24,000 nt of DNA from Desulfobulbaceae bacterium (GTDB lineage: Bacteria > Desulfobacterota > Desulfobulbia > Desulfobulbales > Desulfocapsaceae). The stretch's first letter is position 1. The number at the start of each line of letters is the position of its first letter. The notes beneath the pieces were generated by a model. It was not told where the DNA came from. It saw nothing but the letters and a program-made list of their open reading frames with translations, and searched no databases. A program made the position numbers and the translations under genes. Shown one piece after another: positions 366 to 9,125 of the stretch. Where the stretch lies: NCBI GenBank assembly GCA_024640625.1, contig JAHEER010000030.1, forward strand, positions 13,373 through 37,372. Reading direction: 5' to 3'.

Positions 366-458
366 TGATTTAGCCTTTCCAGAGCTTGTTTGAGAGGTTG
401 GGCGTTGCCTTGTCGCAAGACTTTCCGACCATATTACTTATACCTGAAGGAGCATACC

Positions 459-896
459 ATGATCAATCGACTCTCCGTCTCATTAGTCCTTTTCTCAGCT
501 TTAGTGCTGGCCGCCGGCAACGTGTTCGCCCATTGTGAAATACCCTGCGGCATCTACGATGATGAATTGCGCATGAGCCTGATCAGTGAACATGCCGGTA
601 CCATCGAAAAATCGATGAACCAGATCATTGAACTGGAGAAGGGCGGCAATGCCAACCAACTGGTGCGCTGGGTAACCAATAAAGAGGTCCATGCCAATGA
701 GGTGCAGCACATCGTCACCCAGTATTTCATGACCCAGCGGATCCAGTTCGATACGCCCGACTATGACAAGAAGCTGGCGGCCCTGCATGAGATCCTGGTC
801 TATGCCATGAAATGCAAGCAGACCACCGACGTGACCAACGTTGAGATGCTGCGCCAGGCGGCCGACAGGTTCCACAAACTATATTTTCACGACTAG
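459..896 (+). CDS. sodN: Nickel-containing superoxide dismutase (NiSOD) precursor with a signal-peptide-like pre-sequence
   Basis: The Ni-hook motif HCEIPCGIYDD (compare Streptomyces HCDLPCGVYDP) directly follows a 24-aa pre-sequence, MINRLSVSLVLFSALVLAAGNVFA. The GAAGGAG Shine-Dalgarno at 446-452 supports the ATG at 459 rather than the track start at 390. The predicted mature length of 121 aa is close to known NiSODs. Confidence 0.9.
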   Translation: MINRLSVSLVLFSALVLAAGNVFAHCEIPCGIYDDELRMSLISEHAGTIEKSMNQIIELEKGGNANQLVRWVTNKEVHANEVQHIVTQYFMTQRIQFDTPDYDKKLAALHEILVYAMKCKQTTDVTNVEMLRQAADRFHKLYFHD

Positions 897-949: not shown

Positions 950-2206
950 CTAGCGTATCGACTGGCCGTGGGGGTCGCGGACCGGTTTGCCGAGCTTTTC
1001 ATCGAGGTAGTCCACCGTGGAACTGTCGCTGATATGCTCGAGATGGTGGGCCGTGGGATGCAGTTCTTCCTGGGGAGTGCCGATTGATTCGAGGTAGGCT
1101 TCCCATAATCTGTGCGCCTTCAACACTTTCCCCGCCTCCTTGGTGCCGTCCTCGGTCAGCGAAAAACCTTCCGGGGCTTCAACCAGAAGCCCGTCCCCGA
1201 TCATCGACAGCACTGCTTTTTTAAGCCCCTTGTCCTGTTCGACGTACTGATAGAGTATGTTCATAGGGGTGGGCTTTTCATAGCGCAGGATGGTGGTCAG
1301 GATGTCCTCCACCTGCTGCTGGGGGATAAGGTTGCGCATCCTCAGCCAGCGGGCCAGCAGACCATATTTCGGGGCCACTACCAGGACGACCAGAAACTGC
1401 AGGGTGCAGAACAGCATAATGGCGCCGCCGCCGGCGGAATCGAGCCAGACACAGAGGTAAAGCCCGCCGACTACGCTGGTGACGCCGAACAGCGCGGCCA
1501 GCCACATCATCCTGTCGAGCCGGTCGCTGAGCAGGTAAGCGGTGGCCGCCGGAGTGATCAGCAGACCGACCACCAGGATGACGCCGACCATGCTCACCGC
1601 GCTGACCACCACCAGCGATACGCAGATGGTCAGGACATAGTCGAGCAGCAGCACCGGCAGGCCGATCGAGGCGGCCATGATGGGGTCGAAGGTGGCGATC
1701 TGGAAATGTCTGAAAAACAGAATAAGTACTGTCAGCACCAGCGCCGCCACGAAAGCGCTGACCCAGAGGTCGGTGTCCGCCACTCCGAGGATGTCGCCCA
1801 TGATGAAGTGCATCAGATCTATATGGATGTAGTGCCTGAAAATGGAGACGACCACTACTCCGAGGGCAAAGATGCCGGTGTACATGATGCCGATGGCGGT
1901 GTCTTCCTTGACCCGTGAAATCCGGGCAACGAAGCTTATCAGGGCGACGGTGGTCACCGCGGCGATAAGCGAGCCGAGCAGCATGCCGGGCGCGTGGGCC
2001 TCGAGGCTGAAGAGCAGCTTCATGACCAGGTAGCCGCCGGCCACCCCGGCGATCATCGCGTGACTCAGGGCATCACCCAGGAAGGCCATTCTCCTCAGCA
2101 CAACGAGACAGCCGACCACGCCGGCGACCATGGCGACGATGGAGCCGCCGATCAGCGCTTTCTGAAAATAGGTTTCGGTGAGCGGGGCAATAAACAGCTC
2201 GTACAT
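950..2206 (-). CDS. Metal ABC transporter permease (ABC-3; ZnuB/MntB/TroC/YtgC family) fused to a C-terminal DtxR-family metalloregulator domain
   Basis: The N-terminal ~285 aa are polytopic, with VLRRMAFLGDALSHA... typical of ABC-3 permeases. The C-terminal ~125 aa (roughly nt 953-1321) align by eye to DtxR/MntR/TroR: a winged-helix region followed by KAHRLWEAYLESIGTPQEELHPTAHHLEHISD...VRDPHGQSI. His/Glu residues occupy the DtxR metal-ligand positions (H79, E83, H98, C102->H, E105, H106 equivalents). The start overlaps the ATPase stop (TGATG). Confidence 0.85.
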   Translation of the reverse strand: MYELFIAPLTETYFQKALIGGSIVAMVAGVVGCLVVLRRMAFLGDALSHAMIAGVAGGYLVMKLLFSLEAHAPGMLLGSLIAAVTTVALISFVARISRVKEDTAIGIMYTGIFALGVVVVSIFRHYIHIDLMHFIMGDILGVADTDLWVSAFVAALVLTVLILFFRHFQIATFDPIMAASIGLPVLLLDYVLTICVSLVVVSAVSMVGVILVVGLLITPAATAYLLSDRLDRMMWLAALFGVTSVVGGLYLCVWLDSAGGGAIMLFCTLQFLVVLVVAPKYGLLARWLRMRNLIPQQQVEDILTTILRYEKPTPMNILYQYVEQDKGLKKAVLSMIGDGLLVEAPEGFSLTEDGTKEAGKVLKAHRLWEAYLESIGTPQEELHPTAHHLEHISDSSTVDYLDEKLGKPVRDPHGQSIR

Positions 2207-2967
2207 CAGGACTCCTCCTTGGCGAGGACATCGCTGAAAATCCTCAATCTTCCTTCGTACACTTTGCTGAGCAGATCCTCCCTGAGGACCAGGCGCGGCG
2301 GGCCGTAGGCGTAAAGCCGCTGCTTGATCAGGATGAGCCTGTCGAAATATTCCGCGGCGGTGGACAGATCGTGGTGCACAACCACCAGGGTTTTTCCGGC
2401 CTGCTTGGCGCGTTCGAGCACATCCAGGATGGCCCGCTCGGTGGCTGCGTCGACGCCGGCAAAAGGTTCGTCGAGCAGCAGGATGTCGCTGCCCTGGGCC
2501 AGGGCCCGGGCCAGGAAGACGCGCTGCTGTTGACCGCCCGAGAGCTCCCCGATCTGGCGTTCGGCAAAATCCTGCATCCGCACCATCTCGAGGGCCTCGA
2601 GGGCGGCCTGCCGGTCCTGGCCGGACGGCGATGTATACCAGGGAATTCGCTGGTAGCGGCCCATCAGCGCCACTTCCTCAACCGTGATTGGGAAATCCCA
2701 ATCCACCGCCCCGCGCTGGGGAACATAGGCAACCTCTCCCTTGGCTTTCTGAGCGCTCTGGCCGTTGATCTTGACAATCCCCACATCCGGCTTGATGAAC
2801 CCCAAAATGGCCTTGATGAAGGTCGACTTGCCGGCCCCGTTGGGCCCGATCACTCCGACCAGCTGATCCCGCTCGATACTGATGGTGACGTCGAGCAGGG
2901 CGGGCTTGGCCTGGTAGCTCACCGTCAGGTGATCGACTTCGATCACAAACTTATTGTCAGTGGTCAT
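2206..2967 (-). CDS. Metal ABC transporter ATP-binding protein (ZnuC/MntA/TroB family)
   Basis: Walker A GPNGAGKST, signature LSGGQQQRV, Walker B LLLDEP. The size (253 aa) and operon context fit. Confidence 0.9.
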   Translation of the reverse strand: MTTDNKFVIEVDHLTVSYQAKPALLDVTISIERDQLVGVIGPNGAGKSTFIKAILGFIKPDVGIVKINGQSAQKAKGEVAYVPQRGAVDWDFPITVEEVALMGRYQRIPWYTSPSGQDRQAALEALEMVRMQDFAERQIGELSGGQQQRVFLARALAQGSDILLLDEPFAGVDAATERAILDVLERAKQAGKTLVVVHHDLSTAAEYFDRLILIKQRLYAYGPPRLVLREDLLSKVYEGRLRIFSDVLAKEES

Positions 2968-3457
2968 GGTCGGTCTCCGTGCTGGTGAGACTGAAGGGAA
3001 CGGTGCCCGAAACCAGGCCCCCGCCGCTGCTCCAGATGGTCTGCTCGGCCAGGACCCTGTCCTGGTTCAGCAGGCGAACTCTGATACCGTGGGTCAGGTG
3101 GTTCTCCGCCACCGGAGGACTTGCCTTGATGAAGACCTCGTTATGATCGGAGAGGGCGAACTCGAGATCACGGATGAACAGCGTCTGTCCCCGGCTGATC
3201 GACAGATCGGCGATGTCCACCGCCATACCGTTGAGACGGAGGTCGAAGGGGCCTGTCTGCTCCGCTGTGTGCAGGGCGAAAGGGTCTTCTTCCACCGAAA
3301 AGGTCGGGGTCAATTCGATCGAAAGACGCTCTTTGGTCTTCTCGGCAACCGGGGCGGCCGCACTTTCAGTGACCGCACCGCTGTGGCGTTTTTGGGTGTA
3401 GGCATAGAGACCGCCGACAATGACGACCCAGATGGCCAGGCAGAGTAGAAATCTCAT
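2957..3457 (-). CDS. Hypothetical membrane-anchored protein embedded in the metal ABC operon
   Basis: 166 aa with one N-terminal TM helix (FLLCLAIWVVIVGGLYAY), a soluble domain I do not recognise, and a C-terminus ...TETDHDH. It starts 8 nt after the SBP stop and overlaps the ATPase start by 11 nt, so it is very likely co-translated with the operon. Confidence 0.6.
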   Translation of the reverse strand: MRFLLCLAIWVVIVGGLYAYTQKRHSGAVTESAAAPVAEKTKERLSIELTPTFSVEEDPFALHTAEQTGPFDLRLNGMAVDIADLSISRGQTLFIRDLEFALSDHNEVFIKASPPVAENHLTHGIRVRLLNQDRVLAEQTIWSSGGGLVSGTVPFSLTSTETDHDH

Positions 3458-3465
3458 AATGAATC

Positions 3466-4386
3466 TTATTTCAAGGCGTTGACGATGAGAATGACATTTT
3501 CGCGCATCATGCCGATATATGTCTCTCCGGCGCTGTTCTCGGGGCCCATGGAATCGGAATAGAGTTCACCGCCGATCTCAACCCCGGTCTCCTTGGCGAT
3601 TTCTCTGATCTGCTTGGGATTGATGGTGGTCTCGACGAAAATGGCAGGAGCTCCCGACTCTTTTATCGACTGGACAACCTTGCGTCTGCGCTCGGGGGTG
3701 ATGCCGGCGCCGACTTCGGCACCGGTGGACCAGCCGACCGGGGCAATGGAGAGATAATCATTGTTGGGGTTGAGCTTGAATTCCCGGCAGAAATAGTTGA
3801 AGGCGTCGTGGGTGGTGACCAATATCCGCCGATCGGCGGGGATACGGTTGATCTGTTCGCGAATCCAGGAGTCCAGAACCCTGAGCTGCTGCAGAAAGAG
3901 CGTTGCTCGGGCCTCATATTCCTCTTTGTTGGCCGGATCGATCTGGCTGATGCCCCTGACGATGTTGTTTACATAAACGGCGGCGTTCCTCGGTGAAAAC
4001 CAGGCATGGGGATCGGCAATCTGCTCCCCGCCCTCGTTGACGGTCAGCAACTCGATGCCGTCGGTGACGGTGACAAGCGGTTTGTTGGCATCCTTGGCCA
4101 GGGTGGCCATCCAGCTCTTGCCCTCCAGATGCAGCCCGTTTTCCAGGCAGAGATCGGCGCCGAGCACGATCTGCACGTCATTGGGGGTCGGCTGGTAGGT
4201 GTGCGGGTCCGCCCCGGGCGCCAGGATCGAGTTAACCACGGCTCTTTCTCCGGCGACCTGGCGGGCAAAATCAGCGATCTGGGTCGTCGAGGCGACGATT
4301 ACCGGTTTGTCCTCCGCAGCAGCGGGATACTGCGCAAATATGAGTGCTATCGAGAACACCGCGATGGTGCTCAGCCAGTATTTCAT
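3466..4386 (-). CDS. Metal ABC transporter substrate-binding protein (cluster A-I; TroA/ZnuA/MntC/PsaA family)
   Basis: Signal peptide MKYWLSTIAVFSIALIFAQYPAAA. Motifs GADPHTYQPTP, DPHAWFSP and LVTTHDAFNYF place His at the third ligand position, as in TroA/ZnuA. There is no long His-rich loop. GGGAGATAGGAG Shine-Dalgarno sits before the ATG. Confidence 0.9.
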   Translation of the reverse strand: MKYWLSTIAVFSIALIFAQYPAAAEDKPVIVASTTQIADFARQVAGERAVVNSILAPGADPHTYQPTPNDVQIVLGADLCLENGLHLEGKSWMATLAKDANKPLVTVTDGIELLTVNEGGEQIADPHAWFSPRNAAVYVNNIVRGISQIDPANKEEYEARATLFLQQLRVLDSWIREQINRIPADRRILVTTHDAFNYFCREFKLNPNNDYLSIAPVGWSTGAEVGAGITPERRRKVVQSIKESGAPAIFVETTINPKQIREIAKETGVEIGGELYSDSMGPENSAGETYIGMMRENVILIVNALK

Positions 4387-4451
4387 CTCCTATCTCCCAA
4401 CAGACTAAAACTGTAAATGAGGGCCCTGAAATGATCTTAAAATCAGTTCAA

Positions 4452-4479
4452 AGGATAAACACTTGTGCTTAGATTTCAA
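4452..4479 (-). promoter_or_regulatory. Candidate promoter and operator for the metal ABC operon
   Basis: On the minus strand: TTGAAA (4479-4474), 16-nt spacer, TATCCT (4457-4452). The spacer holds an imperfect 16-bp palindrome TAAGCACAAGTGTTTA (4471-4456, 6 of 8 pairs), a position typical for a repressor site. Weak, pattern-only call. Confidence 0.25.
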
Positions 4480-4710
4480 CAAAATATCGGTGTCTGCCAC
4501 AATGTCGAACAGGCTGCGGCGGCGGGGAGGGGCAGGCAGGTTGTCTCCCATCGAGCCCTTGTAACTGGGATAGACAATTGGTAGGCTTAAAGGAGAAGGA
4601 AGCTGCCGAATCAGGACAGGGGCAGCCGAGTTCTTTTTCGTGACGGGATCAACGGCCGGGTACGTTGCTACTGGCCCGGACTACGAGAGGCATTTACAGG
4701 GAGGTCGGTC

Positions 4711-5127
4711 ATGAAAAGTACGCGTAAGATCAAAGAGGCGATCATCCGCAATTATCCCGAAATCGGCCTTGACGATTCTCTGGGAGATGCGATCAACGCC
4801 ATGGCCAAAAACAACGCCTCGGCGCTGGTGGTCAGGGAGGGCGGTATCCTGATCGGTCTGGTGACTATCACCGATGTGATGCACAGCCTCGTCCACCACC
4901 ATGATCTGCAGGACACCAAAATCAGCTCGTTCATGACCAAATGCGAACTGATTTCCGCCGAGGCCACCAAGAACGCCTGTGCCCAGCTCGATGAGGATCA
5001 GGATGTACTGTCGGCGCTGAAGGTGATGCATCAGGCCGGCGTCAATCACCTGGTAGTCTCCAGAGCCGAAGGGGATCCGGTCGGGGTGGTATCGAGCCTG
5101 GAGATCATCAGATTGCTGGGCAGGTAA
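4711..5127 (+). CDS. CBS-pair domain protein
   Basis: 138 aa with two CBS-like repeats (...ALVVREGGILIGLVTITDVM... and ...VNHLVVSRAEGDPVGVVSSLEIIRLL). AGGGAGG Shine-Dalgarno before the ATG. Confidence 0.8.
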   Translation: MKSTRKIKEAIIRNYPEIGLDDSLGDAINAMAKNNASALVVREGGILIGLVTITDVMHSLVHHHDLQDTKISSFMTKCELISAEATKNACAQLDEDQDVLSALKVMHQAGVNHLVVSRAEGDPVGVVSSLEIIRLLGR

Positions 5128-5144
5128 TCCCTGCCGATCAGGCC

Positions 5145-5525
5145 TCAGCAGGTCGAGTGGAAGAGTCCGCCGACGGCGACGTCTTGGTCAATGCAGTCGT
5201 GGTACATCTGGACCGCACGCTTGGTGTCGGTGGCGATGGTCTCGATGCCGTGGCTGTCCAGATAGGCCAGTGCCTCGTCGGTCACTTTAAGGCGCGAAAA
5301 GACGCCGCGGGCCAATATCACCGTCTGACAGCCGCGGTCCACCAGTTCTTCGACATCTCTCACCTGAATGCCCGGGGAGTGTGCGGTTCCCGTTTCCTTC
5401 CAGTCCCAGGACCGGCCGCCTCCGGGCCACAGTTTGAAATCCTTGCCGCTGCCCAATGACTCTATCTTCATTTTGCCCCAGCCGATGGACTCTATTCTCG
5501 GTGATTTGAGCTTTGCCTTAGTCAT
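5145..5525 (-). CDS. Mth938-like (DUF498/NDUFAF3-like) domain protein
   Basis: 126 aa. The pattern IESIGWGKMKI...DFKLWPGG...VILARG...ALAYLDSHGIETIATDTKRAVQMYHDC...GGLFHSTC resembles the Mth938 family, including the C-terminal LH.TC. It starts 4 nt after the upstream gene's stop. Confidence 0.65.
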   Translation of the reverse strand: MTKAKLKSPRIESIGWGKMKIESLGSGKDFKLWPGGGRSWDWKETGTAHSPGIQVRDVEELVDRGCQTVILARGVFSRLKVTDEALAYLDSHGIETIATDTKRAVQMYHDCIDQDVAVGGLFHSTC

Positions 5526-6384: not shown

Positions 6385-6885
6385 TCAGGCGACCATGGTG
6401 AATACTTTCGGCAGGGCCGAGCACACCGGACAGTTCTCGGTGGGCTTGCCCAGCTCGATATAGCCGCAGATGGGGCAGAGATAGAACTCGCTCTCATCCA
6501 GGTCGACACCCTTCTGGACTGCTTCAAGCGCCTTCTTGTAGATTTCGGCATGTACCTTTTCGGCGTCCAGGGCGAAACGGAACATGGTCTTGGCCTTGTG
6601 CCCTTCCTCTGAGGCCAAATCTGCCATGGGCGGATACATCTCGGTGTACTCGTAAGTTTCACCGTTAATCGCAGCCTGCAGGTTCTCGGCGGTGGAAGCG
6701 ATGGCGTCGAGCGCCCGCAGATGTCCCTCGGCGTGGATTTTCTCGGCCTGGGCAGTGGTGGCGAAGAGTTTGGCGATATTGGCAAAGCCATCTTTCTCGG
6801 CCTTTTTGGCAAAGGCGCTGTATTTCTGGAAGGCCTGACTTTCGCCGGCAAATGCTTCGCTTAGATTTTCTGTTGTTGTGGCCAT
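6385..6885 (-). CDS. rbr: Rubrerythrin
   Basis: N-terminal four-helix diiron domain (NLSEAFAGESQAFQKYSAFAKKAEKDGF...AEKIHAEGH...) plus a C-terminal rubredoxin-like CPICG...CPVC. Perfect AAAGGAGG Shine-Dalgarno. Confidence 0.9.
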   Translation of the reverse strand: MATTTENLSEAFAGESQAFQKYSAFAKKAEKDGFANIAKLFATTAQAEKIHAEGHLRALDAIASTAENLQAAINGETYEYTEMYPPMADLASEEGHKAKTMFRFALDAEKVHAEIYKKALEAVQKGVDLDESEFYLCPICGYIELGKPTENCPVCSALPKVFTMVA

Positions 6886-8291: not shown

Positions 8292-9125
8292 CTACTTGAT
8301 AAAATTCCCTGCCTTATATTCGCGAAAGGCGGTCTCCAGCTCTTCCTCGGTGTTCATGACTATGGGGCCGCGCCAGGCGATCGGTTCGCCCAGCGGAGTG
8401 CCGGACAGCAACAGGAAGCGCATTCCCGCCGGACCCGCGCTCACCGAAATTTCGTTGCCCGGCCCGTAAAGCACCAGCTGCCGGTTGTGAACAGCAGCCG
8501 AGGCCGTTGCGCCAGTGCCGTCGATGGTATAAAGCAGCACGGTGTGGCGGTCCGGAATCCGGCGCTGGAATCGGCCGTTGCCCGGCAGGGTCACATCGAG
8601 GTATTCGGGATCGGTGAAAATGTCGCTCACCGGCCCCCGGGTGCCATCACACTGGCCGGCGATGACTTTGATACGGGCCCCGTCGACGTTGATCTCGGGA
8701 ATCTGGGCGGCGCTGATCTCCTGGTAGCGCGGCGCCGTCATCTTGTCTGCGGCTGGCAGATTGGCCCAGAGCTGAAAGCCGTGCATGACGCCTTTCTCGT
8801 CCCCTTTGGGCATTTCCTGATGGACGATGCCGCTGCCGGCGGTCATCCACTGCACATCGCCCGAGGAGATGGTGCCGCTGTTGCCCAGACTGTCGCCGTG
8901 CTCGACATCGCCTTGGAGCATGTAGGTGATGGTCTCGATGCCCCGATGCGGGTGCCAGGGAAATCCCTTGAGATAGTGGGCGGGGGTTTCAGAGCGAAAA
9001 TCGTCGAGCAGCAGAAAGGGATCAAAGAGCTCGACCTCGGAAAATCCGAAGACCCGGTTCAGGTGCACGCCGGCCCCTTCAAGCACCGGGCTGGCCGATA
9101 TGATCCTGGCGGCGTTTCGTTCCAT
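8292..9125 (-). CDS. Pirin-family protein (bicupin)
   Basis: FPWHPHRGIETITYMLQGDVEHGDSLGNSGTISSGDVQWMTAGSGIVHQE is the pirin N-terminal cupin signature. 277 aa, with a GAGGAG Shine-Dalgarno. Confidence 0.9.
   Translation of the reverse strand: MERNAARIISASPVLEGAGVHLNRVFGFSEVELFDPFLLLDDFRSETPAHYLKGFPWHPHRGIETITYMLQGDVEHGDSLGNSGTISSGDVQWMTAGSGIVHQEMPKGDEKGVMHGFQLWANLPAADKMTAPRYQEISAAQIPEINVDGARIKVIAGQCDGTRGPVSDIFTDPEYLDVTLPGNGRFQRRIPDRHTVLLYTIDGTGATASAAVHNRQLVLYGPGNEISVSAGPAGMRFLLLSGTPLGEPIAWRGPIVMNTEEELETAFREYKAGNFIK

Follow-up and report, generated by a model that had tools for sequence, protein, structure and literature searches.

What does a transcription-factor fold do when it is welded to the membrane channel of a metal importer: is it released by proteolysis, does it act from the membrane, or does it gate transport directly? 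The question is raised by a stretch of 24,000 nucleotides from a Desulfobulbaceae bacterium (GenBank assembly GCA_024640625.1, contig JAHEER010000030.1, positions 13,373 to 37,372 of the forward strand), the whole of which is referred to here as the window. On its minus strand, a single gene at 950-2206 encodes an ATP-binding cassette (ABC) metal permease of the ABC-3 family that continues into a two-domain metalloregulator module of the DtxR/MntR type. A preliminary description made from the sequence had proposed this 418-residue open reading frame (ORF) and likened its permease and complete winged-helix/metal module to Chlamydia YtgCR; the ORF was found exactly as claimed, and sequence, fold and a colinear alignment with a Chlamydiales protein agree on the likeness. 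The product is a YtgC-YtgR-type polypeptide, the membrane channel (by analogy a homodimeric one) of a cluster A-I metal importer in a marine sulfate-reducer relative. As to what the C-terminal module, hereafter the tail, does for the cell, we favor metal-dependent autorepression of the operon, to which we assign a probability of roughly 0.55. The fused gene is composed as follows.

950-2206, minus strand: fused gene, ABC-3 metal permease plus C-terminal two-domain DtxR/MntR-type module (418 amino acids (aa), 45.5 kDa, ATG start, stop codon at 950-952)
1361-2206, minus strand: permease domain, the transmembrane (TM) domain of a type II ABC importer, PsaC-like (aa 1-282; last TM helix aa 259-277)
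1319-1360, minus strand: juxtamembrane basic amphipathic helix (aa 283-291, LLARWLRMR) and short linker (aa 292-296, NLIPQ)
1157-1318, minus strand: winged helix-turn-helix (HTH) domain (aa 297-350; helices a1-a2-a3 and a beta-hairpin wing; E300/D301 at the position of DtxR Met10 and MntR Asp8)
953-1156, minus strand: metal-binding/dimerisation domain (aa 351-418; ligands H365, E369, H383, H387, E390 and H391; C-terminal DPHG motif)

The two halves of this protein are recognized by independent means. The Pfam profile ABC-3 (PF00950) matches residues 13-277 (E = 1.6e-61) and Fe_dep_repr_C (PF02742) residues 351-417 (E = 2.6e-19), and NCBIfam models of AztB/SloB/ZnuB-type permeases and of MntR/DtxR (residues 330-417) match as well, all under their equivalog cut-offs. 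Searched against the Protein Data Bank (PDB) with phmmer, the tail found 30 DtxR-family chains, with DtxR, IdeR, MntR, ScaR and DR2539 among the matches, and residues ~311-417 aligned to IdeR 22-132 (E = 1e-6). An AlphaFold2 model of the whole protein, built on a 34-sequence alignment (mean predicted local distance difference test score 76; 72-86 over the blocks of the tail), gives the tail the topology of DtxR and MntR: helices a1 (296-309), a2 (315-321) and a3 (328-337) with a two-stranded wing (341-350), followed by the metal-domain helices, a long a4 (352-375), a5 (379-389) and a6 (395-404). In Foldseek comparisons, model residues ~1-290 match PsaC of the Streptococcus pneumoniae Mn importer PsaBC (7KYP, E = 1e-14, 36% identity), and 125-132 columns of the tail superpose on whole two-domain repressors (root-mean-square deviation (rmsd) 1.9-2.3 Å, TM-score 0.8), including DNA-bound IdeR (2it0, rmsd 1.9 Å) and DR2539 (8pw0, TM-score 0.82). 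Significant DtxR-family matches to the C-terminal part are therefore at hand from Pfam (PF02742), phmmer and Foldseek alike, and the tail is a complete two-domain DtxR/MntR-type module fused in frame to an ABC-3 permease.

The junction between the halves is short. The tail (15.5 kDa) begins ~14 residues after the permease ends, and the linker proper within these amounts to only ~5 residues (residue 277 closes the last TM helix, and a1 starts at 296). Among 73 orthologues, P295 and Q296 are invariant, and A278, P279, Y281, G282 and W287 are likewise conserved junction residues. The chain stops four residues past DPHG, and the SH3/FeoA-like third domain of DtxR-type repressors is absent from the fused protein. 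By the positive-inside rule, which the RxxRxR stretch following the last TM helix obeys, the C-terminus is cytoplasmic; that PsaC tolerates a C-terminal green fluorescent protein fusion was counted as support for the same topology. Separate translation of a free regulator from within the fused gene appears unlikely: neither M290 nor V299 is preceded by a suitably spaced motif resembling a Shine-Dalgarno sequence, and residue 290 is Leu in most orthologues.

The fusion is real and widespread. The ORF runs uninterrupted across the junction in more than 200 independent contigs and genomes, megabase contigs included, and none of them splits it into a permease gene and a regulator gene. Specifically, more than 100 clusters formed at 90% identity (NCBI, JGI, ENA, Logan) contain the same 418-420-aa ORF at 84-100% identity, with contigs of 1.4-5.1 Mb among the sources, and most of them bear the names Desulfofustis, Desulfocapsaceae or Desulfogranum marinum. 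All 80 metagenome loci retrieved (67-93% identity) preserve the junction, as do the best 80 genome loci, which come from several phyla, and near relatives with identical synteny also keep the ORF intact. These genome loci are the best 80 of more than 600 stretches found in a genome scan, and all are contiguous full-length fusions. They belong to Thermodesulfobacteriota, Hydrogenedentota, Planctomycetota (Pirellulales, Phycisphaerae), Bipolaricaulota, Bacteroidota (Saprospiraceae, including the cultured Lewinella cohaerens and Flavilitoribacter nigricans; Ignavibacteria) and Bacillota (Symbiobacterium). When the tail alone was searched against 1.84 billion 50%-identity representatives, 2075 matches were obtained at E<=1e-3; an ABC-3 segment lies directly N-terminal to the DtxR module in 50 of the best 150, and fusions from Chlamydiota are present in this representative set.

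Two sub-architectures can be distinguished within the family. Short forms end, as in the window, right after DPHG-x-IP, and long forms carry 85-100 further C-terminal residues; the long forms (P0300, P0307, P0123, P0126 and others) measure 500-560 aa and share 50-72% identity with the window protein. The extra domain, which Pfam does not recognize, is presumably the SH3/FeoA-like third DtxR domain. Because long-form orthologues carry it and the window clade lacks it, the extra domain is, judged from the sequences, evolutionarily labile within the fusion family. The pair of forms mirrors that of the treponemal regulator TroR, which lacks the SH3-like third domain in T. pallidum and possesses it in T. 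denticola (PMC2628430).

The preliminary description had implied that a fusion outside Chlamydia was novel, which it is not. Orthologous permease-repressor fusions in 11 bacterial phyla were described by Thompson et al. in 2012, as reported by a 2017 review (PMC5599777), and JGI already labels relatives of the window protein 'ABC-type Mn2+/Zn2+ transport system permease subunit/Mn-dependent DtxR family transcriptional regulator'. The architecture is accordingly published, annotated and widespread, and the window protein is an uncharacterised member; our literature search found no paper characterising any non-chlamydial fusion.

Some members of the family stand apart from any importer genes. 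Orphan fused genes were seen at 3992-5497 of locus L143 (Lewinella cohaerens DSM 23179), where the neighbors encode a class-V aminotransferase and a GT4 glycosyltransferase, and in ~26 other Saprospiraceae/Bacteroidota loci; the orphan loci have no gene for a substrate-binding protein (SBP) or an ATPase within 4 kb on either side, and masked sequence is not the cause.

The closest studied parallel is YtgC-YtgR of Chlamydia trachomatis (CT069, in the ytgABCD operon), in which an ABC-3 permease is likewise followed by a DtxR-like winged HTH and a metal/dimerisation domain in one ORF. A fusion from a Chlamydiales bacterium (P0455) aligns colinearly with the window protein by BLASTP (4-417 with 2-415, 27% identity, E = 4e-42), the ytg operon also encodes a ZnuA-family SBP and an ATPase, and the DtxR ligand positions are conserved in YtgR (PMC5599777) as they are in the window tail. 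As the preliminary description had noted, YtgR is proteolytically released from YtgC: a 28-30-kDa fragment is cleaved off in Chlamydia and in E. coli, and YtgR acts as a metal-dependent repressor that binds the ytg promoter (PMC5599777, PMC7755916). The two systems differ in several respects. Chlamydia possesses a second permease, YtgD (PMC5599777, PMC7755916), which the window operon lacks and which probably characterizes the chlamydial operon and not the fusion family as a whole; the window operon contains an extra conserved 166-aa gene that the ytg operon does not; and cleavage product, Fe dependence and operator binding have been demonstrated for Chlamydia only.

A second parallel is provided by Treponema, where, again as had been noted, TroR is encoded by a separate last gene of the tro operons (troABCDR; PMC2628430). 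TroR, like DtxR, MntR and IdeR, shares with the tail a winged HTH and a helical dimerisation/metal domain in which all ligand positions are occupied, and the tail resembles T. pallidum TroR and B. subtilis MntR in lacking the SH3-like third domain. For both regulators, the coding sequence closes the 3' end of a metal ABC operon of cluster A-I. Since TroR occupies this place as a soluble, separate protein and the window tail is covalently attached to the permease, the two stand in a Rosetta-stone relation.

The metal ligands of the tail are its best-preserved feature. In the alignment with IdeR and DR2539, H365/E369/H383 correspond to DtxR H79/E83/H98 and H387/E390/H391 to DtxR C102/E105/H106, and the helix-1 heptad register (ED-IL in the tail, EM-YL in DtxR, ED-YI in MntR) places D301, following Glu300, at the position of DtxR Met10 and MntR Asp8. 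All ligand positions are thus filled, as the preliminary description had stated, though not every one by His or Glu, given Asp301. Thr304 stands where MntR has Glu11, and neither Cys nor Met occurs among the ligands; the resulting set of Asp/His/Glu/His is neither that of DtxR, with Met/Cys (Fe), nor that of MntR, with Asp/Glu/Glu/His plus Glu11 (binuclear Mn). The ligand positions are invariant in the 73 orthologues (H387 in 96%), and the ligand residues are also invariant in 22 fusions of 25-66% identity, save that aa 387 varies between His and Glu across the family. This residue (nt 1046-1048), at the selectivity-linked position of DtxR Cys102 and MntR Glu99, is His in the window clade and some Planctomycetota and Glu in most other fusions, the aligned Chlamydiales members included, which suggests different metal preferences within the fusion family.

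The operon in which the fused gene resides is tight, comprises four genes on the minus strand (SBP, 166-aa gene, ATPase, fusion), and ends with the fusion. The partner genes, in the order of transcription, are the following.

3466-4386, minus strand: SBP of cluster A-I, ZnuA family (306 aa; PF01297, E = 4e-80)
2957-3457, minus strand: accessory gene (166 aa: N-terminal TM helix, 7-stranded beta domain, C-terminal DHDH-type tail; overlaps the ATPase gene at 2957-2967)
2206-2967, minus strand: ABC ATPase (253 aa; PF00005; stop overlaps the fused-gene start at 2206; NCBIfam match MntA/AztA-like, under cut-off)

This order is kept in every related locus with enough upstream sequence and reaches Hydrogenedentota and part of Planctomycetota; the 166-aa gene is missing from the Bacteroidota and Ignavibacteria loci. 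Two claims of the preliminary description held up on a scan of the neighborhood: the window contains no second ABC-3 permease, so that the fused gene is the only one of its operon, and no separate regulator gene, there being neither another DtxR homologue in the window nor a Fur, DtxR or other metalloregulator among 20 further candidate genes. A second ABC-3 gene is also absent from 79 of the 80 related genome loci. By analogy with PsaC2 and ZnuB2, both homodimeric permeases (ZnuB2: preprint PMC12236471), a single permease gene should yield a homodimeric channel carrying two tails. The importer resembles PsaBC, MntBC, ZnuBC and TroCD in its ABC-3 permease of PsaC fold and its ZnuA-family SBP, and it differs from them in the C-terminal regulator domain on its permease.

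Which metal is carried can be narrowed from the SBP and the sensor together. The nearest PDB entries of the SBP are 8svc, YfeA, MntC, PsaA and TroA, and its predicted metal site, taken from the YfeA alignment, is His62-His127-His193-Asp278, with His where YfeA has Glu207 ('TTHDAF' vs 'TSEGAF'). A His3Asp site is of the TroA/AztC type and would point to Zn or Mn/Zn rather than to the classical His2GluAsp Mn/Fe site seen in PsaA and YfeA. Because all NCBIfam equivalog scores lie under their cut-offs, we assign no specific metal to the importer; given the His3Asp site and sensor ligands made of N and O only, with no Cys or Met, the imported and sensed metal is probably Zn or Mn.

Upstream of the operon, two non-coding features deserve consideration as the seat of control.

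4448-4488, minus strand: conserved non-coding island, the best candidate promoter/operator region, with a sigma70-like promoter inside
4427-4450, no strand assigned: 24-nt AT-rich imperfect dyad TGAACTGATTTTAAGATCATTTCA, 10 of 12 arm pairs matched, just downstream of the -10 element; a weak operator candidate

A scan placed the sigma70-like promoter with its -35 element (TTGAAA) at 4479-4474, a 16-nt spacer and its -10 element (TATCCT) at 4457-4452. The ~40-nt island is near-invariant in six relatives (90-97% protein identity) with diverging flanks, which makes it a plausible promoter/operator. The weak palindrome that the preliminary description had located at 4456-4471 (CACAAGTG) does sit in the promoter spacer; as an operator, it does not stand out statistically from chance, and three of the six close relatives, in which it reads CATAAGTG, no longer have the symmetry.

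With these elements in place, the scheme that we favor can be laid out. Build-up of the imported metal in the cytoplasm would fill the sites D301/H387/E390/H391 and H365/E369/H383; metal-loaded tails would then dimerise, bind the operon's own promoter region (~4427-4488) and switch transcription off. Such negative autoregulation would hard-wire the dosage of the sensor to that of the transporter. By analogy with chlamydial YtgCR, the tail would probably be released by a housekeeping protease, with action in the tethered state as an alternative; release is favored within this scheme because of the ~5-residue linker and the ATPase dimer on the cytoplasmic face. Autorepression draws its support from the lack of any other regulator gene in the window, from the ~40-nt conserved promoter island and from repression by the chlamydial homologue.

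Several observations weigh against autorepression by the tail. To begin with, PF01325, the profile of the DtxR N-terminal HTH, does not match the tail alone even at E<=10, so that of the three profiles expected of such a fusion (PF00950, PF01325 and PF02742) only the first and last are found; the HTH is divergent enough to escape a profile made for the TroR/DtxR family. The Chlamydiales fusion members nevertheless show the same pattern, ABC-3 plus PF02742 without PF01325, and the miss is consequently a trait of the fusion family and not a sign of decay. Since support at the level of the fold is strong and the Chlamydiales proteins behave alike, we do not take it as evidence against an HTH. A second observation concerns the rate at which this domain evolves. 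Across the 73 orthologues, mean identity to the window protein is 0.88 in the permease, 0.66 in the metal domain and 0.47 in the HTH, the least conserved region (47% vs 88% for the permease). The ratio of nonsynonymous to synonymous substitution (dN/dS, by Nei-Gojobori; approximate, with dS near 1) is below 1 in every domain, at 0.10 in the permease, 0.16 in the metal domain and a highest value of 0.41 in the HTH, reaching 0.48 in the recognition helix and wing; the pace of the HTH is about four times that of the remaining protein. Moreover, the recognition helix of the window protein (LKKAVLSMIGDGL) lacks R/K333, Q334 and Q337 of the clade consensus. Fast evolution of an HTH would, however, also be expected from co-evolution with its operator.

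The operator itself is a further difficulty, as the region upstream of the operon contains no conserved or statistically supported dyad. Compared with shuffled sequences, the best-dyad score gave p~0.06 for the window and was not significant elsewhere. The 24-nt dyad at 4427-4450 is retained only in the 97%-identical relative and is not present upstream of the D. marinum operon; a search for inverted repeats found none, and neither this dyad nor the palindrome at 4456-4471 recurs elsewhere in the window. Nor is a cleavage site or a protease predictable from the sequence, while a tethered dimer looks sterically hard-pressed to reach DNA, with a short linker and the ATPase dimer in its way. Lastly, 8 of the best 80 genome loci (L115, L116, L117, L121, L123, L125, L141 and L151; Ignavibacteria and a few Saprospiraceae, Planctomycetales and Phycisphaeraceae) have a free-standing DtxR-family gene next to the fused operon, which gives two DtxR modules per locus. 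In the Ignavibacteriaceae locus L115, for example, a classical 220-aa regulator with a C-terminal extension is encoded at 1625-2287 (plus strand), directly upstream of the SBP gene. Because such free genes adjoin some fused operons, the tail is not necessarily the transcriptional regulator of its operon.

The same observations lend themselves to another explanation, in which the tail is a built-in gating sensor. Here the attached tails would bind metal, change their conformation or dimerisation and lock the homodimeric transporter shut (trans-inhibition), whether instead of binding DNA or alongside it, with the winged HTH serving as a protein-protein or structural module. Invariant ligands beside an HTH that evolves fastest, a very short linker with an invariant Pro-Gln, one permease gene and hence two tails per transporter, the lack of a supported operator upstream of the operon, and the retention by some lineages of a classical DtxR regulator as a free protein of the same operon all speak for this reading. 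Built-in cytoplasmic regulatory domains are found on the ATPases of other ABC importers, as in the C-terminal domains of ModC and MetN. Within the same transporter family, E. coli ZnuC carries a C-terminal cytoplasmic Zn-sensing domain (CxxxHxCC) that locks ZnuBC closed (2025 preprint PMC12236471). Like the tail, this domain is a cytoplasmic, dimerisation-capable, ligand-binding and covalent part of the transporter, and it senses the transported metal; it differs in being placed on the ATPase subunit and in having no DNA-binding fold, whereas the tail sits on the permease and has a complete transcription-factor fold. The window ATPase (2206-2967) lacks such a domain and, having zero cysteines, cannot carry one of the ZnuC type. 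The tail could work like the ZnuC sensor, though it is not a member of that family. Against gating stand the retention of a complete winged HTH fold, wing included, across at least six phyla at 25-66% identity with dN/dS below 1, the DNA binding and repression of the chlamydial homologue, and the location of known trans-inhibition domains on the ATPase and not the permease; operator co-evolution would also produce a fast HTH. On balance, we regard gating as a genuine rival, though on the unlikely side. A stronger version, in which outside Chlamydia the tail is primarily a transporter-integral metal sensor that locks the importer, with DNA binding secondary or lost and the 166-aa protein as a further component, is about as unlikely.

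A further alternative keeps DNA binding and dispenses with release. The uncleaved tail would bind the promoter as a permanently tethered repressor, with membrane insertion coupled to transcription and translation (transertion) holding the operon DNA at the membrane in the manner of ToxR/CadC-type regulators. The fused gene does belong to the operon that it would repress, at 2.2 kb from the promoter, and a homodimeric permease would supply the two tails; full-length YtgC also represses in E. coli, for which membrane-anchored LacI has been cited as a precedent (PMC5599777). Nonetheless, the ~5-residue linker and an ATPase dimer that would, on a PsaBC-type architecture, lie between the permease C-termini oppose this arrangement, as do the endogenous liberation of the domain in Chlamydia and the orphan fusions of Saprospiraceae, which adjoin no transporter operon. 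We consider permanent tethering improbable.

That the tail is a decaying, non-functional relic of an ancient fusion, as its poorly conserved HTH and the PF01325 miss might intimate, is very hard to reconcile with invariant ligand positions, dN/dS of 0.16 and 0.41 in its two domains, a full fold kept across phyla and the lack of truncated forms among the 73 orthologues. An artefact, whereby a frameshift, sequencing error or assembly merge joined a permease to a downstream regulator arranged as in troD-troR of Treponema, where the genes are separate (PMC2628430), has next to no chance in view of the conserved junction residues and of an ORF uninterrupted in more than 100 clusters, both sets of 80 loci and syntenic relatives.

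As a finding of sequence, then, this locus is ordinary, its architecture, spread beyond Chlamydia and annotation all being pre-existing. What it offers is that signalling by a transporter-welded transcription-factor fold, be it through proteolytic release, membrane action or direct gating, becomes addressable in bacteria that are free-living and in part cultured (Desulfogranum marinum, Desulfosediminicola flagellatus, Lewinella cohaerens and Flavilitoribacter nigricans). The chlamydial system has two permeases and is hard to work with genetically; by comparison, these organisms provide additional handles: a single permease with two tails, invariant ligands set against a fast-evolving HTH, and a free DtxR regulator in some Ignavibacteria. 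Were the tail to gate transport, the recently proposed principle of built-in sensors in metal ABC importers would be extended, and the fusions would be a permease-borne counterpart of the ZnuC Zn-sensing domain made from a recycled transcription-factor fold.

The accessory gene of the operon forms a family of its own. Its 166-aa product has no match in Pfam, NCBIfam or the PDB (fold comparison included), and its ~107 homologous clusters, devoid of Pfam domains, are all named 'hypothetical'. Thermodesulfobacteriota, Hydrogenedentota and part of Planctomycetota have the gene together with the fused permease and, where present, it always lies between the SBP and ATPase genes. It evolves fast, at 29-75% identity where the adjoining genes show 62-91%, and retains the conserved motifs DPF, NE and SPP along with H123, W142 and an invariant HDH-type tail at the C-terminus. 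By the positive-inside rule its beta domain, seen in an AlphaFold2 model, should be periplasmic; an accessory role in metal handling is no more than a guess.

A second conserved non-coding element, CAATTGT-N-CAGTTACAAGG, lies at 4557-4580 (minus strand), upstream of the SBP gene by ~190 nt from its start. It occupies the intergenic region that separates the SBP gene from a divergent CBS-domain gene (4711-5127, plus strand), to which it may belong. It is an imperfect dyad in the window, and its counterpart in locus L002, TTGTAAC-TCTCA-GTTACAA, forms a perfect 7+5+7 dyad (best-dyad p=0.01).

On the other side of the operon, a nickel superoxide dismutase (Ni-SOD) gene (PF09055) at 390-896 (plus strand; likely true start ATG 459) converges on the fused gene and ends 53 nt from its stop, with a terminator-like hairpin at 908-922 between the two. 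The adjacency is kept in relatives at 90-97% identity, where the gene-called product is 145 aa. Import of Ni, at which the adjoining Ni-SOD gene hinted, was dropped as a candidate, the SBP being of the cluster A-I Mn/Zn/Fe type. Together with nearby genes for rubrerythrin (6385-6885, minus strand) and pirin (8292-9125, minus strand), Ni-SOD lends the neighborhood an oxidative-stress flavor.

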